From Candidatus Latescibacterota bacterium (lineage in GTDB: Bacteria > Latescibacterota > UBA2968 > GCA-2709665), in assembly GCA_965222075.1 (NCBI GenBank), contig OZ244937.1, positions 2,272,001 to 2,336,000 on the forward strand: DNA of 64,000 nt. The letters are read 5' to 3'. A model generated the notes under the pieces. It saw nothing but the letters and a program-made list of their open reading frames with translations, did no database searches and was not told the origin of the DNA. Each line of letters begins with the position of its first letter. Position 1 is the first letter of the stretch. The translations under genes and the position numbers were made by a program. Positions 41,386-56,005 of the stretch are shown in pieces.

Positions 41386-44300
41386 ATGAAAAAAAGGGTA
41401 GTTAATCAGGTCACCCCGCTGTTGCCGCTGGCGACGTGCTTCTTCGCATTGTTCTGCCTCCCTTCTGTCAGTTCTGCGTCGCCCCCTCCTGCCGACAGCA
41501 CGCATTTCTGCGCCTTCGACGACTACGAGCAGTGGCGGCGCGATCACCCCCGCCCGGCGGCCAAGCCGCTGGCGGCTCTGAACGTGGGCGAACCGCGCAC
41601 CGTGCGGATGATCTACTTCCTGCCCAGCGACTGGCCGTACCGCGCCGATGTGGTCGATTCGATGAAGACGGTGATCAAGGAGAGCCAGACCTTCTATCGC
41701 GAGCAGATGCAGGCGCATGGCTACGGCGACTGGACCTTCCGCATCGAAACCGATGCGCAGGGCGAGCCGCTGGTGCATCGCGTGGACGGACAGCATCCCT
41801 TCAGCCACTACGACAACACCCTCGGTAGGGCGGTGGTCGACGAGCTTGGACAGACGTTCGACCGCGATGGGAACATCTATTTCATCGTCCTGGGTACTGA
41901 TGCGCTTCGTCAGGGCAATGGTCAGCCTGCGGGAGGGGTCGGACGGCGGCGCACGAAGAACGGCGGTGTGCTGGTGGTGCCGGATGACTTCAGTTTCTTC
42001 ACGGTTGCCCATGAACTCGGACATACCTTCGGCTTGTATCACGACTTCAGGGACAACCGGTACATCATGTCGTATGGATTTGATCAACGCGGGGTCCTGT
42101 CTGCGTGTGCCGCCGAATTTTTGTCCGTGCATACCTACTTCAATCCCGCCAGTCCGATTGAGGAGGGAACGCCGCCAACCGTCGAGATCACTTCGCCCAC
42201 GAGATATCAGCCAGGCACGACAAGCGTCCCGGTTCAACTTCAGCTCAGCGATCCAGAGGGACTTCATCAGGTGAGCCTGATTGCCAACGCGAAGCCGTGT
42301 CATGGATTGGCGGGACAAAAAGACGCTGTCGTAGAGTTCGACTTTGACGGCAGCTTCCGGCAACGCGGATTTACGAATCTTTCCGACCAGCCCATACATT
42401 ACCTTCTCATCGTCGCCGTCGATGCGGAAGGGAACGTAAGCGAGACGAATTCGTTCCTTGCCGAAAGCTCTCCCTATGAGATCGCTGTCCTGAGGGGAGA
42501 TGCGGACCACGTCGGGTCCGTGGCGTTTTCGCCCGTCGAATCCATTCTGGCTGCCGGGCCGGCGGGTTCTGGTTCGTTCATTCTGTGGGACGTGAGCACA
42601 CGCGAACGGATCGGGACTCTGGAAGGCGCGGGGGGCGCGGTTCCGTTTTCGATTGCGTTTTCACCCGAGGGAGCCATGCTCGCCGCGCCACGGGGTTTAG
42701 CGATCCAGCTGTGGGACGTAAGGAACCGGGAACTGATCGGCGCCTTCGAAGGACATACGAGTCGAATCAGATCCGTGGCGTTTTCCGCCGACGGGGCTCT
42801 ACTGGCTTCCGGGTCGGACGATCCCACGGTGAGGCTGTGGGACGTGGCACACCGACAGGAGATCGCTACCCTGGAAGGACATGCGGCGGAAGGACATGAG
42901 GCTCAGATCAATGCGGTGGCTTTTTCGCCCGATGGGACGCTGCTCGCCTCCGTGTCAGGCAATCATTCAGGCGATTATACGAAACCCGACGAAGGCACCG
43001 TCAGGCTGTGGGACGTGGAAAGCCGAGCAGAAATCACCATCCCTGAGCGCACACGGGGGGCGGTAAGGCAGGTAGCATTTTCGCCCGATGGGAAAAGGCT
43101 CATCTGGGCTTCGTCGCCAGATGACCAGGTCACGCTGTGGGACGTGGAGAGTCGGGAACCGATAGCGGCCTTTGAGGGGTCGAGCTTCGCGTTGTCCCCC
43201 GATGGCGCCATCCTGGCTTGCTTTTCGGGGACGATCACACTGTGGGAGGTGGGGACGGGAAGACAGATCGTCACTCTGCCAGATGCATTTCTCAGTGAGA
43301 GCTTGTCCTTTTCGCCCGACGGCGCGATTCTCGCCGCCGGGTCGTGGTCGTACGGCACGATCACGCTGTGGGACGTGTCGGAGTGGACGGGGCCTCGTCC
43401 CTCGGCCCTGGAGATCATCTCCGGCGACGGCCAGCAGGGCGCGCCCGGCGCCGCGTTGACCCGGCTCCTGGTGGTGGAGGTACGGGATCAGTACGGCAAC
43501 CTCCTGCCCGATGCGGCGGTCACCTTCACGGTCACCGCCGGGGAAGGCCAGCTCAGCGGCCGGTTCACGGTGGAGCACATCACCACCGATGCCGACGGCC
43601 GGGCGGAGCTGATCCTTACCCTGGGTCCTCAACCGGGGCAGAATATCGTGGGCGTGACCCTCGGGGGGCACGAGCTGGCGACGTTTACCGCCGAGGGTGT
43701 GGGCACGGCGGTGGCGGAGCTGGAGGAGGACTACCGGACCTGGCATCTGCCCACGGCAGCGACGGTGCGTCTGGGAAAGGGCGCCCTGGGAGAAAGCGAC
43801 CGGGCGGTAGCTCTATCAGCGGACGGCCGATGTCTGGCCGTGGCCAGCGGCATCGGCGTGTGGCTGTACGAGGCGTCCACGTCTCGTGCTCTGGCGCTGC
43901 TGCCGAGTGAGAGTGCGGTCCATTCGGTGGCGTTCTCCCTCGGCGGCACCCTGGCTGCAGGACTGGACAACGGCCGGGTCGAGCTGTGGGAGGTGGAGAC
44001 CGGTGAGCGGACCGGCACGCTGAGGCATGCGGATTGGGGCCGGGTCACGGTGGTGTTCTCGCCGGATGGGACGAGGCTGGCTTGCGGGTCATTGGAGCAG
44101 GTCATCAAGCTGTGGGATGTGGAGACCAGGCGCGAGGTGGGCACCTGGGAGGTGCCGCGGGAAGGCAATTCAGTTTGGCCCCTCTCGGTGGCCTTTTCGC
44201 CGGATGGGACGAGGCTGGTATCGGGGTTTCAGGATGGCACGGTCAGGCTGTGGGACATAGCGACACAGACGGAGTTGGCCACCCTGGAGGGGCATACGGA

Positions 44301-45726
44301 TCGGGTCACATCGGTGTCGTTTTCGCCCGATGGCGGCTTGCTGGCTTCGGCCGGGGGGTGGAGTGATCCCACGGTCCGGCTGTGGGACGCGGCGACCCAA
44401 ACGGAGGTGGCCACGCTGAGGGGGCATACCAGTGAGGTGCGTTCGGTGTCGTTTTCTTCGCCTGACGGCGCCACCCTGGCTTCCGGGGCATGGGACCGCA
44501 CGGTTCGACTGTGGGACGTGGCCACACAAGAGGAGGTGGCCACCCTGGAAGAGCATAGTGGTCCGGTCCATTCCGTGTCGTTCTCGCGCGATGGCGCGAC
44601 CCTAATCTCCGGGGCCGCGGACGGCAGGGTGCTGCTGCGGGATGTGGAAACGGGCAATGTCGCAGGGCTCTCCGGTCACGGATCCTTGTCCTCGATGGCG
44701 CTTTCGCCCGATGGCGACCTTCTGGCTTCGGGGTACCAGGACGGCACGGTCCGGCTGTGGGATGCGGCGACACGGACACGGATCGCCACTCTTGAGGGGC
44801 ATACGTCCGGGGTCGGTTCGGTGTCTTTTTCTTCGGACGGCGCCACCCTGGCTTCCGGGGCATGGGACCGCACGGTCAAGCTGTGGAACGTGGGAACCCG
44901 AGAACTGGTCGGGACGCTGGAAGGGCATACGTCTGGAGTCAACGCAGTGGCGTTCTCGCCCGATGACGCCACCCTGGCTTCAGCCGGGGGTTGGAATGAT
45001 GCCACCGTGAGACTGTGGGACGTGGCGACACGGACGGAGATCGCCACCCTCGAAGGGCATACGCATTCGGTCCTTTCGGTGGCGTTTTCGCACGATGGCG
45101 CCACCCTGGCTTCGGGAGGGGGCTATGAAGACAACACGGTCAAGCTGTGGAACGTGGCGACCCGAGAAGAGATAGGCACCCTGGAAGGGCATGAGTACGA
45201 GGTCAATACAGTGGCGTTTTCGCCCGACGGGACCACCTTGGCCTCCGTCTCGTGGGATGGCACCAGACTATGGACTGTAAGGACCCGAGAACCGATCGCT
45301 AACCTTGAAGACGCGGGGGGCCAATCGGTGGCCTTCTCGTCGGATGGAGCATTGCTCGTTTCCGGTTCCTGGGGGACGGTCAGCCTATGGGACGTAGAGA
45401 CACGGGAACAGATCGTCACACTGGAGGGGCATTCAGGTTCAGTTCATTCCGTGGCGTTTTTGAGCGACGGCACCGCCCTCGCGTCCGGGTCAGAGGACGG
45501 CACGATGCTGCTGTGGGATATTGCGCCGTACACCGCCGCTCAAACCTCCAACCCCGACTTCGACGGCGACGGGACCGTTGGCTTTGGCGATTTTGTGCAG
45601 TTTGCAGCACGGTTCGGGTTAAGTCAAGGCGACGCGGGATACGATGCGCGGTACGATCTGGATGGGGATGGTACCATCGGGTTCGGCGATTTCGTGATTT
45701 TCGCCAACGCCTTTGGGAAGAATTAA
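41386..45726 (+). CDS. secreted metzincin-like protease + WD40 arrays + Ig-like + dockerin-like tail
   Basis: HELGHTFGLYHD, YIMSY; WD40 repeats; PDFDGDG tail. Confidence 0.88.
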   Translation: MKKRVVNQVTPLLPLATCFFALFCLPSVSSASPPPADSTHFCAFDDYEQWRRDHPRPAAKPLAALNVGEPRTVRMIYFLPSDWPYRADVVDSMKTVIKESQTFYREQMQAHGYGDWTFRIETDAQGEPLVHRVDGQHPFSHYDNTLGRAVVDELGQTFDRDGNIYFIVLGTDALRQGNGQPAGGVGRRRTKNGGVLVVPDDFSFFTVAHELGHTFGLYHDFRDNRYIMSYGFDQRGVLSACAAEFLSVHTYFNPASPIEEGTPPTVEITSPTRYQPGTTSVPVQLQLSDPEGLHQVSLIANAKPCHGLAGQKDAVVEFDFDGSFRQRGFTNLSDQPIHYLLIVAVDAEGNVSETNSFLAESSPYEIAVLRGDADHVGSVAFSPVESILAAGPAGSGSFILWDVSTRERIGTLEGAGGAVPFSIAFSPEGAMLAAPRGLAIQLWDVRNRELIGAFEGHTSRIRSVAFSADGALLASGSDDPTVRLWDVAHRQEIATLEGHAAEGHEAQINAVAFSPDGTLLASVSGNHSGDYTKPDEGTVRLWDVESRAEITIPERTRGAVRQVAFSPDGKRLIWASSPDDQVTLWDVESREPIAAFEGSSFALSPDGAILACFSGTITLWEVGTGRQIVTLPDAFLSESLSFSPDGAILAAGSWSYGTITLWDVSEWTGPRPSALEIISGDGQQGAPGAALTRLLVVEVRDQYGNLLPDAAVTFTVTAGEGQLSGRFTVEHITTDADGRAELILTLGPQPGQNIVGVTLGGHELATFTAEGVGTAVAELEEDYRTWHLPTAATVRLGKGALGESDRAVALSADGRCLAVASGIGVWLYEASTSRALALLPSESAVHSVAFSLGGTLAAGLDNGRVELWEVETGERTGTLRHADWGRVTVVFSPDGTRLACGSLEQVIKLWDVETRREVGTWEVPREGNSVWPLSVAFSPDGTRLVSGFQDGTVRLWDIATQTELATLEGHTDRVTSVSFSPDGGLLASAGGWSDPTVRLWDAATQTEVATLRGHTSEVRSVSFSSPDGATLASGAWDRTVRLWDVATQEEVATLEEHSGPVHSVSFSRDGATLISGAADGRVLLRDVETGNVAGLSGHGSLSSMALSPDGDLLASGYQDGTVRLWDAATRTRIATLEGHTSGVGSVSFSSDGATLASGAWDRTVKLWNVGTRELVGTLEGHTSGVNAVAFSPDDATLASAGGWNDATVRLWDVATRTEIATLEGHTHSVLSVAFSHDGATLASGGGYEDNTVKLWNVATREEIGTLEGHEYEVNTVAFSPDGTTLASVSWDGTRLWTVRTREPIANLEDAGGQSVAFSSDGALLVSGSWGTVSLWDVETREQIVTLEGHSGSVHSVAFLSDGTALASGSEDGTMLLWDIAPYTAAQTSNPDFDGDGTVGFGDFVQFAARFGLSQGDAGYDARYDLDGDGTIGFGDFVIFANAFGKN

Positions 45727-45815
45727 AGAATCAGGGAAAACGAGAAGCCTGCGATCATGAACCTGAAGACACTCTGTCATCGCGGTTTGATCAAAGGCGG
45801 TGGTGAGGAGCCGTT

Positions 45816-46715
45816 TCACATTTCACGGTTTCCGGACATGGCGAATCGGATCGCCCCGGGCAGCGCCTCCACATCCAGGGTTGCATCGCCCGCCACCGCC
45901 TCTCCGTCCACCTGCAACGGACCGGGTGCCGGCTGCACGATCCGAAGCGCCCGCGTCCGGAACAACCGTACACCCGACATCCTATCGACCGTACCGGTGA
46001 AAAGCCGGGGGATGTGCCCTAAGGCCCGCAGCGGCCCCACGTCTTCGATCACACACAGGTCGAGCAGGCCGTCGTCCGGACGGGCCCCCGGAGCAATAAT
46101 CACGCCGTTGCCGTACTGTGCCGTATTGGCCACCGTCAAAATCGCAGGTCGCGTCCGAACCGTCGCCCCCCCATCTAAGATAACCTCCACCTCTTTGGGG
46201 GTATATGACCAGAACGCCGCCACACTCAGTGCCACATAAGGCAAAAGCCCGCGGCGGCCCGACCTGTTGTTGTAGCGCCAACACACCTCCGCATCCAGCC
46301 CCACGCCGGCCGTTGAAAAAAAAATCTTATCCCCAATCCGGCCCACATCCATCGGTCGGACATCGGCCTGGAGCAGTGCCCTGCAGGCCTGCGCCGGATC
46401 AAGAGAGATGCCCAGCGCACGGGCAAGCGCATTTCCCGACCCCAGCGGCAGCAGGCCCAGCGCCGTCTCCCGTTCCACCAGCCCCCTGCCCACTTCGTTC
46501 AGCGTCCCATCTCCCCCCACAGCCACCACCAGCCCGACCCCCTCATCGGCCGCCTCCCGGGCCAGCACCGTCCCGTGTCCGCGGTACGCTGTACAGACCG
46601 TCTCAAATACAATGCCCGTCCCGCTCAATACCCCCCGGATGACGGCCTCCACATCCCCGCGCCGGTTCCCCGCCAGAGGGTTCTTGATAAAACACATGCT
46701 CGAAAATCGGTTCAC
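45816..46715 (-). CDS. diacylglycerol/lipid kinase family (YegS/BmrU-like)
   Basis: NPLAG, GGDGTLNEV, PLGSGNALA, QYGNG, DDGLLD, QVDGE. Confidence 0.9.
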   Translation of the reverse strand: MNRFSSMCFIKNPLAGNRRGDVEAVIRGVLSGTGIVFETVCTAYRGHGTVLAREAADEGVGLVVAVGGDGTLNEVGRGLVERETALGLLPLGSGNALARALGISLDPAQACRALLQADVRPMDVGRIGDKIFFSTAGVGLDAEVCWRYNNRSGRRGLLPYVALSVAAFWSYTPKEVEVILDGGATVRTRPAILTVANTAQYGNGVIIAPGARPDDGLLDLCVIEDVGPLRALGHIPRLFTGTVDRMSGVRLFRTRALRIVQPAPGPLQVDGEAVAGDATLDVEALPGAIRFAMSGNREM

Positions 46716-47305
46716 CTCACACCCAGCCGTTTCACCAAAACCTGGCCGATATCCATCAGGATCTTGTAGGCAACCTGGGAAACATCGACGGTCTGAATCA
46801 ATCTTTCGGGATAGTGCGCCAGGGTCTCCCCGGTCTGCTGGTCGTAAACCTTGAACCGGTTGCGAATAACCTCCTCGTTGGCATCATCTTCCCGGCCCTC
46901 CACCACCGCACGCCCCTGCAGGCGCCTGATCAGAATGTCCCGATCCGGACAGTCCAGAGAGAGAATCAACACAACCCCTAAGTCGTCCTTCACCATCCTG
47001 GCCTGAGCCCGGGTGCGCGGCAGACCGTCCAGCACCAGGTGCTGCTCATCCGGTTTAAAATCTCCAGACGCAATCAACGTCTGCATATATTCGCGCCAGA
47101 GGGCCACGGCATGTTCGTCAGGGACCAGCTCTCCCTTGCGAATGTAGGAAAGGGCGAGTTGCCCCACTTCGCTGGTCGGCGTCAGCCCCCGAAACATGTC
47201 GCCTGTGGACACATGGGAAAAGCCCGGAACCTTTCCCAGAATATCGCCCCAGGTTCCCTTGCCCGATCCGGGCGGTCCAAAGAGTAAAATCGTCTGGTAG
47301 GCCAT
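46712..47305 (-). CDS. adk: adenylate kinase
   Basis: GPPGSGKGT, HVSTGDMFR, GELVPD, LDGLPRT, REDD; ATG at 47305. Confidence 0.85.
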   Translation of the reverse strand: MAYQTILLFGPPGSGKGTWGDILGKVPGFSHVSTGDMFRGLTPTSEVGQLALSYIRKGELVPDEHAVALWREYMQTLIASGDFKPDEQHLVLDGLPRTRAQARMVKDDLGVVLILSLDCPDRDILIRRLQGRAVVEGREDDANEEVIRNRFKVYDQQTGETLAHYPERLIQTVDVSQVAYKILMDIGQVLVKRLGVR

Positions 47306-47488
47306 CTGCACTCCGATGATCAGGGTTGAACACAACACCGCTAACAGCGAAACATTATCATTTCGCGCAAGAAAATCAAGCCCTTTTTGAACCCGGGTGG
47401 GGAGACGATCCGGTGAGCCGGAGGCAGGCGTGAGCCAATCGTCCGGGGTAGGGTAGACGCAGAGAGTGCGGAGAGATGTATTTTGGCC

Positions 47489-47517
47489 TTGACTGCTGAC
47501 CATCCGTGCAGTATATT
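47489..47517 (+). promoter_or_regulatory. sigma70 promoter of the HD gene
   Basis: TTGACT-N17-TATATT. Confidence 0.7.
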
Positions 47518-47571
47518 AACCGGTGGCCAAGCCCTGCAAATTGGTTCACCGGACCTTGAAAGGACGCTCAA

Positions 47572-48804
47572 ATGGTCATTCGGGACCCCGTCCACGGAGA
47601 CCTCCGCTTCACCGATGCGGAACGCCGCGTTATGGACACCTACCAGATGCAGCGCCTGCGGGGCATCCGGCAGACCGGCACGGCCTACCTGGTCTACCCG
47701 GGGTGTGTGCACACCCGATTCGAACACTCGCTGGGGACCTCTGCAATGGCCAGGCGCATCGTCTGCGCCCTCCGGGACAACGGCGTGGCGGTTCGCGCCG
47801 AGCAGGAGGCGGTTGTGGTGCTCGCAGCGCTCGTCCACGACATTTCCCACCTTCCTTTCGGCCATACCTTCGAAGACGAGCGCAAACTCTTCCCCCGGCA
47901 CGATACGGTGGAACGCCTGCGGCACTTCCTGTCTCAGGACGAACTGGCAGATGCTCTGAAGGCCTCGGGATTTCCAGATGAAGTCTTCGCCCTGCTGACC
48001 GACCGTCGGTTCGATCCCCCCTGGATGCGGCAGATCATCTCCAGCACCGTTGACGCCGACCTGCTCGACTACCTCCGCAGAGACGCTTATTTTGCAGGAC
48101 TGCGGCAGGACTACGACGACCGGATCTTCAGCACCTTTACCGTTGCAGAGGGAAACCTGGCCATCAACATGGCCAGGCTGAGCACGCGCACCGAATTGCT
48201 GCACCTGCTCCGCCTCCGCTACTTTTTAACCGAACGGGTCTACTACCACCACGCCAAAGTCGTCTCCGGGGCCATGATCGCCAAGGCCGTGGAACTGGCA
48301 GTGGAAGGAGGACTAACCGAAAAGGATCTCTACGACCTGACGGACGACGCCCTGCTGCGGACCCTCATAGGACGGGGAGAGGCACGCATCGAACGCCTCA
48401 TCAAAGGGGTCATGCACCGCAAGCTGCTCAAACGCGCCTACCTCATCTCCGCAGCCGAAGTGGGCCGCCGGGACCGCGACGAACTGATTGCCACCTACAA
48501 CCGATCGGTGGAGGCCCGGAAGCGGACCGAGCGGGAAATCGCCGACGCAGTCGTCCTCGACCCCGACCAGGTCATCCTCTACTGTCCCGATATCTCCTCG
48601 ATCAAAGAGGCCAGGGTATTTATCGAAACCCGCGACGGACTGCGACGCCTCAACGAACCCCTCGACAGCCCCCCATTCGACGTCAAGGCCGTGGAGGACC
48701 AGTACGAGAGACTCTGGAAACTCTACGTATTCGCACCTGAAGGCTACCGCGAGCGGGTGGGAAAGATCTGCGAAAGGATCTTTGGTGAACCCAACGCACT
48801 CTAG
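47572..48804 (+). CDS. HD-domain phosphohydrolase (COG1078/SAMHD1-like dNTPase family)
   Basis: IRDPVHG, MQRLRGIRQ, HTRFEHSLG, HDISH.PF.H..E, DAD.LDYL.RD, VYYH. Confidence 0.88.
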   Translation: MVIRDPVHGDLRFTDAERRVMDTYQMQRLRGIRQTGTAYLVYPGCVHTRFEHSLGTSAMARRIVCALRDNGVAVRAEQEAVVVLAALVHDISHLPFGHTFEDERKLFPRHDTVERLRHFLSQDELADALKASGFPDEVFALLTDRRFDPPWMRQIISSTVDADLLDYLRRDAYFAGLRQDYDDRIFSTFTVAEGNLAINMARLSTRTELLHLLRLRYFLTERVYYHHAKVVSGAMIAKAVELAVEGGLTEKDLYDLTDDALLRTLIGRGEARIERLIKGVMHRKLLKRAYLISAAEVGRRDRDELIATYNRSVEARKRTEREIADAVVLDPDQVILYCPDISSIKEARVFIETRDGLRRLNEPLDSPPFDVKAVEDQYERLWKLYVFAPEGYRERVGKICERIFGEPNAL

Positions 48805-48977
48805 TGTAAGAGTGCCCCACCCCACGACTCACCACGCTTCAACGCCGCCACCCGCCGGCGCGCCTTCCCGTTCGTCCGTCTCACATCGCCCCTCCAATTG
48901 CTGACCACTCAAAAAAACAAAAGCCCTTCCTTCGCAGAGAAAGAAAGGCCTCTTTCTTCGCCATTTCGAAGTTCCCC

Positions 48978-49532
48978 TCAAACCTCGCCTTCGGCTTCCA
49001 ATCGCTGTCCGGGATGCTTCATCCGCCCAAACAGGGGCAGGCGGGCGCGTCCTTCTTCCTCCAGCTTCTTGTGGCACGACCGGCAGACCGAAATCAGGTT
49101 GCTCAACACATTGGCGTCCGATGCCGAGGCGAACATCCGCACAGGCGTCAGGTGATGCACATCCAGCTGGCGTTTCAACGCTTCCTCCGTAACGCCGCAG
49201 GCCCGGCAGCGGTACCCGTCCCGCTCGCGGGCCCGGGCCGCCTGAGCCGCCCAGTTGCCCCCCCGGTACTCCGGGCGCCCCTCCAGACGCAGCCGAAACG
49301 GTTCATCCGTCTGTTCCTCCTCCCACGCCGCCCGGCACGCGTCGCTGCAAAAATAGAGCCGCATCCCCTTCTCGGCATACCAGCGGGGCAGGGGAAACCG
49401 CACCCCACACGCCTGGCACCGGACCTGCACCTCCTCCTCCCGGCGCGCCGCTTGCTCATCCGCAAAGGCCAGCCGCATCTGCGGCGACACAGCAGCAGGT
49501 CCTTTCTTACATTCGGATCTTCGTTTCGACAT
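48978..49532 (-). CDS. HNH endonuclease with N-terminal zinc-binding (TRASH-like) motif
   Basis: CQACG..FCSDAC, then RERDGYRCRACG..LDVHH..NLISVCRSCH. Confidence 0.85.
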   Translation of the reverse strand: MSKRRSECKKGPAAVSPQMRLAFADEQAARREEEVQVRCQACGVRFPLPRWYAEKGMRLYFCSDACRAAWEEEQTDEPFRLRLEGRPEYRGGNWAAQAARARERDGYRCRACGVTEEALKRQLDVHHLTPVRMFASASDANVLSNLISVCRSCHKKLEEEGRARLPLFGRMKHPGQRLEAEGEV

Positions 49533-49704
49533 CGCAGTTTAAAATTGCGGCCTAACCACAACCACCGCACTGTCTCCTGGAGAAGGGCGGCACCCGCACC
49601 GAAACTAAGGCGCTGCCCGTCTCGGTCAGGAAAGCAGGCGCGACCCCCTCAAACGGCTTGCTGGTCCACCCTGACCACACGGCTCAGCTTCCCTTCGTCT
49701 TTGG

Positions 49705-49734
49705 AATATAGGGAAGATTGTCAGGGGAAGTCAA
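49705..49734 (-). promoter_or_regulatory. sigma70 promoter of the HNH gene
   Basis: minus strand TTGACT-N18-TATATT. Confidence 0.55.
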
Positions 49735-50035
49735 CGTCAATCGTTATGCGGCCCTTGCCGCATCTGCGGGAACGGCACTTTTTTCTCAACATCTCTTCCA
49801 AAAACCGTTCACAGTATGGATCTCCTCCACCGTCGTTCGACTAACCTGTTGTCTCTTATTCGGGTTCTGAAGATCTCCTTGCGAACAACTTTTTTGAACC
49901 GAATCCGAACGCCTGCCAAACACGTACCAAACGTTGCTCACGCCTTAAAAAAAATTTTCTGATTCAATGCGCTTAAGTTTCAAGACCTTATCGCATTGAC
50001 GATGAAATTTATGCACATTTTCTCAAAATAAGTCC

Positions 50036-50064
50036 TTGACTCCCTCGCCCTCTGCATATATATT
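50036..50064 (+). promoter_or_regulatory. sigma70 promoter firing into a region with no credible ORF
   Basis: TTGACT-N17-TATATT, same hexamers as the promoter at 47489. Confidence 0.7.
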
Positions 50065-50070
50065 CTATCT

Positions 50071-50884
50071 GGTTGTGCCAATATGGTGAACACTTTTTCT
50101 GCGTATGAGTTCAAGTAAATCAAAGGGTTACAGCCGGACGAACTTTTCTCTTTAAATTCAGCCCACCCCCTGAGTTTGAAGAAAAAGTCGCTGGTTTCAA
50201 ACAGGCTTGTATTTTAACGACTTACCATTTCCAAGCCGTTAAGAACGTACCAAAAAGTGTTCACAGTATTGTCTTGCAAAGAACCATATCAGGCGAATAC
50301 TACGTCTAAGCTCAGATGGAAAAGACCTCGATCCATGGGAAGAGAAGCGGGGATCTGGATCGACGTCACCTTAGACTTGTCGGCTCTTGCTTAATCGAAG
50401 ATCTTCTAAAGCACCCGAGGTCACCTGCCCTCACCAGCAGAACAGGTTCACTTTCTCTTCCAGCGGTCGGAACTACCCGGCGGCTATCCCCCTTTTTTTC
50501 AGATTCTCCAGACGTTAACAACCCCAACCAAACGCTTACTCATCTCAGGTGTCTTCATGCGGTTCCCAGAGCGAGGTCTGTACGTCACAACATCGTGTAG
50601 CCCTCTCTCTACACTCACGCGTTTGGTAGATCCCCAAAGAGATACGGGCGGCATGGAGGTCACCGATGGCTTTATTCGGATAGACCTGACCCGGGGGAGG
50701 TAGACACGTTTCTCTGCGGTCAGCCATAGGATTATTGGGGGAGATAATGCTATGACCTGCACCGATATAACAAGAGAACACAGTTTCCCCTCTGATGCAT
50801 TCCAGTTCTAATCCGAATACCCGGCCTTCACGTACCTCCATCCGCCCTCTTTTTCTCCAGCGGCCCTCCGGGCCGCTTTTTCTA
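50071..50884 (+). ncRNA. candidate large structured non-coding RNA (unassigned)
   Basis: own promoter and terminator, no credible ORF, several long nested helices with G-U wobbles on the + strand. Confidence 0.55.
50859..50884 (+). terminator. intrinsic terminator (+ strand)
   Basis: AGCGGCCC-tcc-GGGCCGCT followed by TTTTCT. Confidence 0.65.
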
Positions 50885-50891
50885 TACCCAT

Positions 50892-50917
50892 AAAAAAACC
50901 GGCCACAAAAGCCGGTT
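50892..50917 (-). terminator. intrinsic terminator of comEC
   Basis: minus strand AACCGGC-ttttgtg-GCCGGTT-TTTTT right after the comEC stop. Confidence 0.7.
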
Positions 50918-50936
50918 CTCACGCTCAAGCAGAAAA

Positions 50937-53324
50937 TTACCGCCTCGTGAGCCATCCCTCTGCCCGCATCTCTTCTCCGTCGATCACGATCTGAATCGCC
51001 CCCACTTTGTCCGTCCGGAAGATTGTAAGCCCCATCTGCTCGTATCGGCGGATCACCTCGGGGGCAGGATGTCTGAATTTGTTGTCCACACCGCATGAAA
51101 CGGTTACCAGTTGGGGGCGCACAGCCGCTAAGAAGGCCGCTGTTGAGGAGGTGCGCGATCCGTGGTGGGCCGCCTTCAGCACCTCCGCCCGGAGCCGCTC
51201 TTCCCACCTCAGCAAATCCCGGTCGGTCTCGTGTTCGATATCTCCAGTCAAAAGAACCGCCTTCCCCCCAAAGGTAATCCGCAACACCACCGACCCGTTG
51301 TTCAGCCCGTGCGGGGCCTCCCCATCCATTGAGACATAAGCAGGCGTGGGATGGAGCACCAGCGCCCCTGCTCCCCCCAGGCCAACCAGGCTGTCCCCTG
51401 CGGCCACCGCCTGATATGCAATGCCCCGCTCCCGGATCAACGTCCGAATCCGCCGGGCGGTCCACGACCCATAGGTCTGTCCCCCATCCAGGTAGTGCCC
51501 CACCTCGAACCGCTCCAAAAGCGTCACCAGTCCTCCGATGTGGTCGCTGTGTGGATGAGACGCCACGACAATGTCGATTCGTCGGATGCCGCGTTCCCTC
51601 AGAAACGGCACCAGCACCCGTTCCCCCACATCGATCCCCACCGTCCGCAAGCCCCCATCAACCATCATCGTCCGCCCGTTGGGGAACCTCAGGAAAACCC
51701 CATCCCCCTGGCCCACATCCAGCACCACGACCTCTAAGCCGGAAGGCCTCTGAAAAATACCGCTCCAAACCCACAGGTTGGCCAGTCCCAGACAGCAGAA
51801 GACCAGATATCGCCCGGCAGTTTGCCGACGTACCTCCGGCACAATCAACATCAGCAAACAGAAGTAGAGGCCGGTGCCAACCCACGCCGGCTTCGGCACC
51901 TCCACAAAGGCCCAGGTCGGCCTGGACAGGAGGTCTGCCGCACCGATCGCTCCCTTCAAAACAGCCCAGTTCGCCCCGTTAAACAGCGTGGCGATCGGCT
52001 CTAAGAAAACCGAATAACAGAGGACCGAAAGCAACCCCAGCGCAACAGCGGCTCCCATCAGCGGCACAACGATCAGATTGGCCAGAAGTGAAATGGACGC
52101 TAAGTGTCCAAAGTAGGTGGCCACAAACGGCGCCGTCCCCGCCTGCGCCGCCAGAGAGACCGCTAAGGGCGTACAGATCCACTTCCCCCACAGCCCCCTG
52201 TCACTGCCCGGCATCCACGCCCGTATCGGTCTGTAAAAAAGGAGAATCGCCCCGGTCGCTGCAAAAGAGAGCTGAAACCCCACATCGAACAGATCCTGCG
52301 GCCGAACGGCCAGCAGCACCAACCCCGCGGTTCCCAGCGTATTCAACCCCTCTCCCTCCCGGTCCCCCAGCGTCCCCAAAATGGCGATAGACCCCATCGT
52401 CGACGCCCGAATGACCGAAGGCGGCAATCCCGTCACCAGCGCATACATCAACAGCGCCCCCACCGTGGTCAGGCTGGTGCCCCGCCGACCGATCCCCAGA
52501 GTCCGCAAACCAAAGAAAACCGACGCGGCAATCAGGCCCACGTGCAGCCCCGAAACGGCAAGGACGTGGTTTACCCCAGACCGTGTAAACGCCTCTCGAA
52601 CCTCTTCCGGAATGCCCCGTTTCTCCCCCAGCAACACCCCCTTTAAAAGCCCCGCCGGCCCGCCCGAAAGGTTCAGGTCAACCGCCCGACGCACGGCCCG
52701 GCGAACCGGTAACACCACCCCCTTCCAAAACCCGTTCCCTCCCCCCCGCACCACCTCCAGAATCTGCTCTGGATGCCGCACCCTGCCCATCCCGTAAATC
52801 CCCTTTCGTTTCAAATAGTCCCGATAGTCGAACGCTCCGGGGTTCCGGGCCGGGGAGGGCCGCCGAAGCCGAAGCCGCAGGCGTACCCAATCTCCATAAT
52901 CCAGCTTTGGATTCACCTTTCGGAAACGGATCAACGCCTCCCCACAACTCGCAAAAACCGAATCGCCCACAACCACCTGCTCAACCGACAGCAGGACCCT
53001 CAGATCCTCCCGAACCCACTCCGGCTCCCCGGCAACGGCGCCCGCCACCTCGACGTTGCCTTCCCGCCCGGTAAACCGTATGAGGTGATGCACCGGTAAC
53101 CTCTGGGTGACGATCTCGTAACGCATCGTCCCCAGCACGCAAAACAAACATCCCAACAGCTCCCCCATTCGTCGATGCCCCCATCCCCCCCAAATGCCCA
53201 TCACAGCAACCAGAAAAAGCATCCCGGCACCCCCCAGGAGCAGTTCCGCCGGAAGGCTCCACCGGTGCCCGATGAGCACCCCTGTCGCAAAGTACACCGC
53301 CGCTGCCAGAGCCGGACGCCGCAT
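50937..53324 (-). CDS. comEC: DNA internalization competence protein ComEC/Rec2
   Basis: RNPGAFDY, HVLAVSGLHVG, GFQLSF, DVGQGD, SHPHSDHIGG, HHGSRTS; start 53324 or 53351. Confidence 0.93.
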   Translation of the reverse strand: MRRPALAAAVYFATGVLIGHRWSLPAELLLGGAGMLFLVAVMGIWGGWGHRRMGELLGCLFCVLGTMRYEIVTQRLPVHHLIRFTGREGNVEVAGAVAGEPEWVREDLRVLLSVEQVVVGDSVFASCGEALIRFRKVNPKLDYGDWVRLRLRLRRPSPARNPGAFDYRDYLKRKGIYGMGRVRHPEQILEVVRGGGNGFWKGVVLPVRRAVRRAVDLNLSGGPAGLLKGVLLGEKRGIPEEVREAFTRSGVNHVLAVSGLHVGLIAASVFFGLRTLGIGRRGTSLTTVGALLMYALVTGLPPSVIRASTMGSIAILGTLGDREGEGLNTLGTAGLVLLAVRPQDLFDVGFQLSFAATGAILLFYRPIRAWMPGSDRGLWGKWICTPLAVSLAAQAGTAPFVATYFGHLASISLLANLIVVPLMGAAVALGLLSVLCYSVFLEPIATLFNGANWAVLKGAIGAADLLSRPTWAFVEVPKPAWVGTGLYFCLLMLIVPEVRRQTAGRYLVFCCLGLANLWVWSGIFQRPSGLEVVVLDVGQGDGVFLRFPNGRTMMVDGGLRTVGIDVGERVLVPFLRERGIRRIDIVVASHPHSDHIGGLVTLLERFEVGHYLDGGQTYGSWTARRIRTLIRERGIAYQAVAAGDSLVGLGGAGALVLHPTPAYVSMDGEAPHGLNNGSVVLRITFGGKAVLLTGDIEHETDRDLLRWEERLRAEVLKAAHHGSRTSSTAAFLAAVRPQLVTVSCGVDNKFRHPAPEVIRRYEQMGLTIFRTDKVGAIQIVIDGEEMRAEGWLTRR

Positions 53325-53567
53325 GACCACTCCCCTTCTTCCCATCCCCACCCCAGGTGCGAGTTGTGAGCAGCAAGTTCAAGTTGAATGCGGTGGGATG
53401 GGGTGGGGTGGGATGGGATACGCGTAACTCCTCACTCGCTGCAATCCCGTGCAATTTCCATACCGTCCTCCTAAAGCCTCAAAAATGGCCTCCAGATCCT
53501 CTCAGAGGAGAACATTCCGTTCACTTCACAGAACGGATCTTTCACCGTCCACCCTCCCAATATTTGT

Positions 53568-53596
53568 TTGACAATAGATACATGAGATGGTATATT
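53568..53596 (+). promoter_or_regulatory. sigma70 promoter of the ecfT-truA operon
   Basis: TTGACA-N17-TATATT. Confidence 0.7.
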
Positions 53597-53652
53597 CTCA
53601 AAGCTCAACTGGTTGCTTTTCAGGGAGGTTAGAAGGTTATAGGCTCTGTAAC

Positions 53653-54030
53653 TTGCCAATTTTAAAGGACATCCCTCCGGGGCGGTACATCCCGGGAAAA
53701 TCACCGCTTCACCGTCTGGATACCCGGGTCAAAATTGTAGGTGCCGCAGCCTTTATGGGGTGCTATTCGGGTGCGGCGCTGGCCGGTTTTCTCACCCTGT
53801 TGAGCCTGCTTGGCAGATCCTGCGGATTTGCAGCTCCTGGTGGGCAACCTGAAGCCGCTTGTGCCCCTCCTCACTTCTCACCCTTGGGCTCAACGCCCTC
53901 ATAACGCCGGGAACGGCGGCTTACCTCCTGGGCCTGGATGAACGGACCTGGGAAGGCATCGACTATGCCGCGCTGATCGCCACGCCCCTGGCCGCCGGCC
54001 TGATCCTGAGTGCGGGCCGTTTCTGATTCC
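53653..54030 (+). pseudogene. ecfT: decayed ECF transporter transmembrane component T
   Basis: LKDIPPGRYIPGKSPLHRLDTRVKI is an EcfT N-terminus, then the frame collapses; canonical position before truA. Confidence 0.65.
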
Positions 54031-54036
54031 ACCGGT

Positions 54037-54786
54037 ATGCAACGCAACATTCGGCTTATTCTGGAATACGACGGCACAGATTTCAAGGGCTGGCAGGTAC
54101 AGCCCGACCAGCGCACGGTTCAGGGGGAACTTGAAGCCTGTCTTCACCGCCTTTTTGGAACGCCCATTCGTACAATTGCCGCTGGCCGCACCGATACGGG
54201 CGTTCACGCCCTGGGGCAGGTGGCCAACTTTATAACCGTCAATCCCCTCAGCGTTGAGCATATTCAGAATGCCCTCAACAGCATGCTCCCTGCAGATAGT
54301 GCGGTGCGCCATGCCAATGAGGTTCCCCTAAGATTTCACGCCCGTCGGGATGCCAGACGGCGAGAGTACGTTTATCGGATTGAATACGGACGCCGTGCAA
54401 TAGGTCGTCAATATGCCCTGTGCATCCGCTCTCGGCTCGATCTTGAGGCCATGCAGGATGCCGCTGCCAGGCTGCTTGGCCACCACGACTTCACCTCGTT
54501 CTGTGTGGCCGCCTCCGAACGGGAAAACCGGGCGTGTCACCTCTTTGAATCTACCTGGCAGCAGTCGGGAGATGGTGTCCATTTCCACATTGCGGCCAAT
54601 CGCTTCTTGCGGGCGATGGTCCGCAGCATCGTTGGCACCCTGATCCAGGTGGGCAGGGGAGGCCGGTCTGCCGATGATATCACAAAAATCCTGGAGGCCC
54701 GGGACAGACGGTGCGCAGGACCGTCTGCGCCTCCCCACGGCCTCTTCCTGAAGCGGGTCACCTATGAGGACCTGCCAGGAGGGTAG
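54037..54786 (+). CDS. truA: tRNA pseudouridine(38-40) synthase
   Basis: EYDGTDFKGWQ, AGRTDTGVHA, FHAR, GHHDFTSF, FLRAMVR, APPHGLFL. Confidence 0.95.
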   Translation: MQRNIRLILEYDGTDFKGWQVQPDQRTVQGELEACLHRLFGTPIRTIAAGRTDTGVHALGQVANFITVNPLSVEHIQNALNSMLPADSAVRHANEVPLRFHARRDARRREYVYRIEYGRRAIGRQYALCIRSRLDLEAMQDAAARLLGHHDFTSFCVAASERENRACHLFESTWQQSGDGVHFHIAANRFLRAMVRSIVGTLIQVGRGGRSADDITKILEARDRRCAGPSAPPHGLFLKRVTYEDLPGG

Positions 54787-54792
54787 ATCGCT

Positions 54793-55932
54793 GTGCTGCG
54801 CTTCCTGCCGGTCTTTCTCTCGGGCATCTTCCTTGGCATCGTCATCTATTCGGTGGTCTGGAATTGGACGGGCGGTCCGGAACCGTCGCCGCTGTTGACG
54901 GTCACGGCAGACGACATCGCCCCATCCCGGCGCAACGCCATCGTTCGGGCCGTGGAGAAGGTTTCACCGGCGGTCGTCGGCGTTCATACAACCTTTTTAA
55001 AAGAATACCAGGGATATTATCGGGACCCGTTCTGGAGTTTCTTCTACTATCCCGGCATCGTCCAGGAAAAGACCCCCGGCCTCGGTTCCGGATTTGTCAT
55101 CCGCAGCGACGGTCATATCCTCACCAACCATCACGTGGTGAAGGGCGCCCGGGAGATCTCCATCGTCTTCCCGGATGGCCGACGGTTCAACGTGACAGAT
55201 ATCAGGAACAACGTCCTGATCGACTGGGAAACGGACCTGGCCGTTATTCACATAGACGCTGACGGGCTGCCAGTTGTAGACCTGGGAAATGCCGATGATG
55301 CGATCATCGGCGAATGGGCTATTTCCATTGGAAACCCCTTTGGACTGGAGATTGAGGACCCCAAACCGACGGTCACGGTCGGTGTGATAAGCGCTATAGG
55401 ACGCAACTTCCAATCCGAGGCTGATGGACGTGTCTACCAGGACATGATCCAGACCGATGCGTCCATCAATCCGGGCAATAGCGGGGGGCCGCTCGTCAAC
55501 AGCCTCGGGGAAGTCATTGGCGTCAACACCTTTATCTTTTCCAAAAGCGGTGGCTCCCTCGGCATCGGATTCGCCATCCCGATCTACCGTGCGGTGGAAG
55601 TCGTCCGGCGGCTCATTGAGGGAGGCGATTTTTGGACGGGGTTCGTTCTCCACCCCAAACTTACCCCGTGGGTGGCGGGCGCGATTGGTCTGGCCACCTA
55701 TGAAGGGGCGCTTATTACCCGCGTGGAAGACAACAGCCCGGCAGCCCGTGCAAAACTCAATCCGGGCGACCTCATTATAAGGATAAATGACCGTCAGGTA
55801 AAAAGCAGGAACGACGCCGAAGAGGCCTTTCGTGAAGGGCGGATAGGCGAGGTCTTCTCCCTGCGGATCCTCCGGGGGCGGCGGCGCTTAAAAACCGAAC
55901 TGGTCCTTGAACAGGCCCCTTTAAATCGGTAG
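54793..55932 (+). CDS. HtrA/DegP-family serine protease with PDZ domain
   Basis: GSGF, TNHHVV, DLAV, IQTDASINPGNSGGPL, PDZ domain. Confidence 0.93.
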   Translation: MLRFLPVFLSGIFLGIVIYSVVWNWTGGPEPSPLLTVTADDIAPSRRNAIVRAVEKVSPAVVGVHTTFLKEYQGYYRDPFWSFFYYPGIVQEKTPGLGSGFVIRSDGHILTNHHVVKGAREISIVFPDGRRFNVTDIRNNVLIDWETDLAVIHIDADGLPVVDLGNADDAIIGEWAISIGNPFGLEIEDPKPTVTVGVISAIGRNFQSEADGRVYQDMIQTDASINPGNSGGPLVNSLGEVIGVNTFIFSKSGGSLGIGFAIPIYRAVEVVRRLIEGGDFWTGFVLHPKLTPWVAGAIGLATYEGALITRVEDNSPAARAKLNPGDLIIRINDRQVKSRNDAEEAFREGRIGEVFSLRILRGRRRLKTELVLEQAPLNR

Positions 55933-56005
55933 CTGCAAGAACTTTTCCAGCGAACCACAGCTTGCTTTCCACATTCAGTAAAACCGTTATCGGAGCGATT
56001 CCGTC

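Follow-up and report, generated by a model that had tools for sequence, protein, structure and literature searches.

The window analysed here, 64,000 nt of contig OZ244937.1 from a Candidatus Latescibacterota bacterium, carries at 50036-50884 an interval without a credible reading frame between an HNH endonuclease gene and comEC (Table 1). ComEC is the convergent neighbour across the whole RNA family described below; the divergent HNH gene occupies its place in the present genus only, and elsewhere accA lies upstream. A decayed remnant of the D1 repeat family at 49762-49930, matching G000:C1:4780403-4780453 of this genome, may mark a rearrangement breakpoint, because homology with the related genome G004 ends near 49820, beyond which the present genus carries HNH in place of accA. 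The HNH gene has a divergent promoter of its own (TTGACT-N18-TATATT, 49705-49734, minus strand), its leader of ca. 170 nt folds no better than shuffled sequences, and a low-depth RNA contig spans 49472-49687 on this side. Further away, the list of open reading frames includes a 1446-residue, secreted-looking protein (41386-45726) whose features are a metallopeptidase-like motif, numerous WD40-like repeats and, at the C-terminus, a DFDGDG repeat.

Table 1. Features of the HNH-comEC interval and its neighbours (positions in the window).
Feature	Position	Strand	Basis or remark
HNH endonuclease gene	48978..49532	-	divergent
IHF-consensus-like site WWTCAANNNNTTA	49978..49990	+	upstream of promoter
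Sigma-70-type promoter TTGAC-N-TATATT	50036..50064	+	scan; pattern upstream of 50/51 rods
D1, 193-bp MITE-type repeat, 20-bp terminal inverted repeats	50079..50271	.	inserted in leader
IHF-like site inside D1	50118-50130
D2-D3, lineage-specific 5' leader, weakly structured	50272..50645	+	transcribed (RNA contigs); z -0.69
D4, ~200-nt rod RNA, functional core	50646..50847	+	conservation, covariation, folding, X5 contig
Apical loop motif YYGGGGGAGA	50735..50744	+	invariant
One-sided A-rich bulge, 3' strand	50765..50771	+	~22 nt from tip loop
3' strand of asymmetric internal loop, RTGCAYC	50794..50802	+	columns at least 90% conserved in alignment A3; mostly unpaired
Intrinsic terminator	50859..50884	+	terminator scan; outside every RNA contig examined
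Hairpin + U run, probable comEC terminator	50894..50919	-	read from sequence; absent from scan list
comEC (Competence, DUF4131, Lactamase_B)	50937..53351	-	convergent

The first-pass annotation had described the interval as a highly structured RNA of ca. 810 nt with its own promoter and terminator. Both signals were recovered by scanning, the promoter as TTGACT-N17-TATATT in a region (45000-56000) with nine promoter-like sites against 2.9 expected, and the terminator as a plus-strand stem at 50859-50877 followed by a U tail. Transcription would accordingly begin near 50071. The strong promoters at 47489-47517 and 53568-53596 also contain a TATATT -10 box, which may be a lineage consensus. Upstream, the site WWTCAANNNNTTA, which resembles the IHF consensus, has counterparts in 49/50 homologues with a promoter match, where it precedes the -35 box by 56-59 bp. 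Relative to shuffled sequences, segment 50070-50890 folds with a z-score of -6.74 on the plus and -2.04 on the minus strand, the excess being unevenly distributed over D1 (-4.89), D4 (-4.82) and D2+D3 jointly (-0.69); folded singly, D2 scores -0.24 and D3 -3.19, the latter on the plus strand only. Every helix previously named for D1-D4 sits where it had been placed (D2, 50304/50370 and 50324/50356; D3, 50527/50619; D4, 50646/50834 and 50673/50811). Rfam returned no gathering-score match in the window and none credible at E≤10; RNase P, SRP and tmRNA, whose signatures the first-pass annotation had not recognised here, were each located elsewhere in the genome.

Two short internal reading frames lacked a Pfam match, and no reading frame is common to the five closest genomes checked. 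A message for a small peptide, whose ribosome binding site would be the apical loop of D4, sequestered by long-range folding in the manner of type I toxin mRNAs, is extremely improbable. ATG, GTG or TTG does stand 8 nt past GGAG in this genome and in several genera, but the same codon reads GCC, ACG, GGG, AGG or ATA in other genera, and close relatives differ in frame through indels of 1-2 nt in the bulge. A conserved peptide was rejected on the grounds that there is neither a Pfam match nor a common reading frame and that start codon and frame are not kept.

Transcription of the interval is documented by assembled RNA. Fourteen runs were listed and contigs from four (X1, X4, X5 and X9) compared with the locus; in four sponge metatranscriptomes of one study, fractions of 0.53-0.55 of the sequence words of 49700-51000 are present. 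The X1 library contains a single contig at 50087-50846 with a depth of 67 and X4, from the same study, a single contig at 50085-50825 with a depth of 132 (libraries of 240-270 Mb), compared with depths of 0-4 over the neighbouring genes, although such contigs reveal neither strand, true ends nor level. Other pieces within 47500-53500 stand at depths of 2-7, and most bins along the flanks have no coverage. In X9 the depth is even, about 30 over the entire stretch. Beyond 50846, the X1 contig continues into sequence that does not occur in this genome and is probably a chimera. X5, a run of a different study guessed to be RNA, yielded contigs at 50423-50573 and 50643-50847; the latter (depth 5) coincides almost to the base with the D4 rod and gives a weak hint of a processed species. 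The plus strand is assigned from the promoter, the terminator and the folding asymmetry. Together, these data support a non-coding plus-strand transcript running from the named promoter to the named terminator and falling outside Rfam.

Judged from its copies and ends, D1 is a mobile repeat of the MITE type: it is short and non-coding, has terminal inverted repeats and occurs in dispersed copies. In this genome nhmmer found 15 matches, one of them a near-complete copy of 189 bp; 14 lie outside reading frames of at least 200 residues, which make up 83% of the genome. The repeat is present in 3/53 genomes of the order. At the orthologous locus of G004 it is missing, with an unrelated segment of ca. 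37 bp instead, and at that of G001 it is half-deleted, the right arm being gone. G004 possesses a 193-bp relative elsewhere, which matches D1 at 125 of the 197 positions aligned; its three copies are 98-100% alike, with perfect inverted ends and flanking direct repeats of 4-5 bp at two or more of the three. These copies (G004:C1:6001325, 4468863 and 4480982) have been recently mobile, and at least two of them adjoin reading frames that resemble transposases by eye. No target duplication was found at the present D1 copy or at G000:2833005, and a search of this genome for an autonomous partner of up to 6 kb with D1 ends gave none, only three left-right pairs 89-192 bp apart. As far as bacterial MITEs (Correia/NEMIS, RUP, CIR) are characterised in the review PMC2229807, D1 resembles them in a length below 200 bp, inverted ends, A+T-richness (40% GC), intergenic position, an IHF-like site, co-transcription and, in the G004 relative, putative target duplications; it differs from the features outlined there in having no TA termini, no target duplication at this site and no autonomous partner found.

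The mobility of D1 bears on an argument of the first-pass annotation, in which the non-Watson-Crick pairs of its arms were read as a sign of selection on RNA structure. The arms (50079-50098/50252-50271) contain one G-U pair and one mismatch, and a dispersed copy has the same pattern, which is thus a trait of the repeat family and no evidence of selection on RNA at this locus.

The remainder of the leader, D2-D3, varies freely between lineages. Among 50 homologues the distance from transcription start to rod spans 64-576 nt. The leader of G004 can be aligned with those of the present genome and G001, weakly with that of G007 and with none beyond. Comparison of the named D2 and D3 helices with two relatives revealed five G-U changes on one side, three new breaks and not a single change on both sides, G004 retaining D2b via three G-U changes. 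Good folding is also seen in some unrelated leaders (z as low as -4.99), which together with the score of D3 suggests that leaders may be under a loose structural constraint.

These observations decide against a conserved multi-domain RNA of ca. 810 nt in the size class of GOLLD, OLE and ROOL. That the whole transcript acts as one such large RNA is very unlikely: the single contigs in two libraries (50085/7 to 50825/46), the plus-strand-only folding of D3, the retained D2b and the well-folding unrelated leaders would fit it, but D1 is mobile and absent or broken at orthologous loci, and the leader is variable in length, unalignable past near genera and broken in its helices without compensation. 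What is shared with GOLLD, OLE and ROOL is the size that the primary transcript reaches in this genus; multi-domain conservation over the whole length, as in those RNAs, was not found here, nor was an Rfam match. By these comparisons only D4 is conserved and three quarters of the transcript length is not. The alternative offered earlier, a precursor of several hairpin RNAs, fits best in its first half: a precursor is indicated, of one conserved hairpin RNA instead of several. A MITE in a freely varying leader can thus give a 200-nt RNA the appearance of a multi-domain RNA of 800 nt.

D4 almost certainly represents a genuine RNA gene. Our model R1 detected the rod in 51/53 genomes of the order, including 22/22 of high quality, with sizes of 171-212 nt. 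It is single copy in 50 of the 51 positive genomes; the exception, G048, has the RNA and accA doubled near both ends of one contig (G048:C1:34475 and 5919675), perhaps an assembly overlap. In the two negative genomes, G005 and G008, comEC is missing too and accA is truncated or absent, so that assembly gaps are the probable cause; a functional link between loss of the rod and of comEC was rejected for this reason. In two genomes of a sister order, accA and comEC flank a rod that has the same tip (z -5.15 and -5.12). Model R2, of limited sensitivity, found no rod in the genomes of family f4 (0/64) or in other classes (0/36); comEC-adjacent DNA of five f4 genomes contained no rod, and 20 accA-adjacent f4 stretches had no sense-strand tip motif among the matches listed. 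Scanning named genomes for the pattern produced 75 loci, 29 of which score as members (by title, 22 with the stem Latescibacter and 4 with Gemmatimonad); metagenomes contributed 15 members among 68 loci, and viral contigs no pattern match. The family has no match in Rfam 15, and searches of open-access articles naming Latescibacter yielded no description of it.

The plus strand folds more stably than the minus strand in all 50 rods compared. Covariation was evaluated on a sequence-only alignment of 30 rods against the fold of this genome, itself one of the rows and with related rows not independent; under these conditions 70.3% of paired cells can pair, compared with 62.6% after shuffling and 42-51% when the structure is slid, and the covariation score is 0.299 versus 0.192. 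The tip helix is paired in 91.8% of cells, with 7/11 pairs changed on both sides. RNAalifold on an all-family MAFFT alignment recovered the tip and the closing stems and nothing else. The tip GGGGGAGA is invariant in 23/23 aligned rows, sister order included, and its GGGGGA is predicted to be unpaired in all 30 rows of alignment A3. An A-rich bulge lies 20-24 nt from the tip loop in 44/51 rods, and the RTGCAYC loop follows ca. 50 nt from the tip within the order; it is not evident in the two sister-order rods. Length differences are confined to the outer stem. The spacing of tip loop, 22-nt arm, bulge, second arm of ca. 22 nt and internal loop is kept while the helix sequences covary. Dimerisation through the self-complementary RTGCAY was weakened as an idea, since the palindrome is disrupted in G007 and G002 and loops of the UNCG type occur in genus g3 instead.

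As the rod is apparently abundant, single copy and retains geometry instead of sequence, it most likely binds a protein, a mode of action that we consider probable from its modelled shape. One option is a scaffold or decoy for a protein other than RNA polymerase that reads the invariant tip loop; the ca. 22-nt arms may then fold back at the bulge so that the G-rich tip docks on the internal loop. The invariance of the tip across two orders, the equal arms flanking the bulge, the lack of a central bubble and a consensus internal-loop strand ending in AUC(C), which could pair with GGGA/GAU, speak for such an arrangement. It nevertheless appears less likely than not: no candidate partner gene co-occurs, the neighbours being accA and comEC, neither CsrA nor Hfq was found, and the sister-order rods do not clearly show the internal-loop motif. 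A sponge of the CsrB/RsmZ type was dismissed, with one GGA loop instead of several and with CsrA not found; the searches for Hfq and CsrA (PF02599) concerned this genome, which is 97.6% complete.

The tip loop might alternatively be a base-pairing seed, either a Shine-Dalgarno mimic that holds the 30S subunit or an antisense element directed at C/U-rich mRNA sites. The 16S tail of this genome is standard (GAUCACCUCC), AGGAG-type sites are enriched before genes, and GGGGGAGAU as read from the sequences would pair with that tail at 8/9 positions in a loop predicted to be single-stranded. We regard this as rather improbable, because the loop differs from the genome-favoured AAGGAG, only 6 nt are open, Hfq was not found and base pairing would not need a 200-nt rod of fixed geometry.

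The known bacterial RNAs of comparable size and habit, 6S, Ms1 and CoRP, bind RNA polymerase, which makes the polymerase the likeliest protein partner of the rod; by this analogy it is a serious candidate, although it falls somewhat short of being probable. With 6S (ssrS, RF00013) the rod shares a length of ca. 200 nt, within the range of a ca. 160-200-nt rod with two irregular helical arms, as well as single-copy occurrence, probable abundance and a sigma-70 promoter. E. coli 6S is, as described in PMC9670815, made from a precursor with a 224-nt P2 leader, to which the presumably removable 5' leader of the rod would correspond. Ms1 of Actinobacteria (ca. 300 nt, its structure comprising a central bubble and terminal hairpins, according to PMC9130861) and CoRP (516 nt, cleaved to pieces of 318 and 198 nt, from a lineage lacking 6S and Ms1, according to PMC11077062) are abundant, structured intergenic RNAs of lineages without a recognised 6S. 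CoRP, whose long transcript yields a 3' piece of 198 nt on cleavage, resembles the proposed rod precursor in this respect. It was compared with the rod by description, and polymerase binding would extend to the rod by analogy.

The central bubble, named as the defining feature of 6S in PMC10578484, is however not predicted: the largest loop measures 3x8 nt in the present rod, the unpaired profile displays one-sided 3' loops, and 5/50 rods contain an interior loop with 8 nt or more on each side (four further flags being branch artefacts), a structure-prediction result in which A+T-rich members are looser. A -10-like hexamer in the bulge is not enriched (26/51 versus 25.2 expected by shuffling), 6S models gave no match at E≤10 for the rod or nine homologous loci, and the most conserved part is the tip loop, whose invariance is a further difference from 6S. 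The genomic contexts differ too (accA/comEC versus zapA/ygfA/rny). An RF00013 search of 132 genomes of the class, f4 included, detected no 6S at a low sensitivity (4-5 of 14 controls recovered). The zapA-rny slot contained no conserved RNA of 6S size, at most a terminator-like hairpin, also in slots sampled from f4 and other classes, and 20 zapA-rny stretches gave no Rfam match at E≤1. A complementary distribution of rod and 6S was not seen; as neither was detected in f4, the absence of 6S is not tied to the rod. Given the outcome of the bubble, -10 and model searches and the lack of both RNAs, as detected, in f4, the rod is not filed as a 6S RNA.

Within the zapA-rny gap of this genome (G000:C1:2600730-2600960) lies a terminator-like hairpin starting CCYGYYGYGTTYGT, which recurs in the order and in several other classes of the phylum and has no Rfam match. 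It may act as an attenuator of rny or be a remnant of a 6S closing stem, which it resembles. Two zapA-family genes occur in 52/53 genomes of the order (here G000:C1:2600973 and 1297593) and two genes with an RNase Y N-domain in nearly all genomes of the class (here 2600091 and 4624113).

For the polymerase as partner speak the single-copy occurrence, the depth of the transcript relative to its flanks, rod sizes in the expected range with variation limited to the outer stem, the separate location of RNase P, SRP and tmRNA, the blank RF00013 search, the lack of a detected Hfq or CsrA, and the precursor-cutting precedents of E. coli 6S and CoRP as outlined in PMC9670815 and PMC11077062. Against it stand the missing bubble and hexamer enrichment, the conservation focused on the tip, the lack of a 6S match and the situation in f4. 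We thus propose the following scenario. A strong sigma-70 promoter, preceded by an IHF-like site at a fixed distance, makes a non-coding transcript whose 5' leader is free to vary and in this genome picked up a MITE. Leader and terminator would probably be trimmed, leaving a stable rod of ca. 200 nt that acts in trans by its shape, its kept geometry reflecting the fit to a large protein surface, most likely that of RNA polymerase, as a 6S/Ms1/CoRP-like regulator where no 6S is found. More specifically, and quite tentatively, the rod might be an independently evolved, bubble-free RNA binding polymerase or ribosome by a G-rich tip and a hinged two-arm ruler, which replaced 6S in two Latescibacterota orders.

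It is rare for an RNA outside Rfam to be single copy, order-wide and, judged by contig depth, strongly expressed. Being short, the rod can be synthesised in vitro, which makes the question of its partner directly testable despite the uncultured state of its hosts. If bound to polymerase, the rod would put to the test the idea of an abundant polymerase-binding RNA in each bacterial lineage and would imply that a central bubble is not required for this function; if bound to another partner, it would constitute a new ribonucleoprotein.
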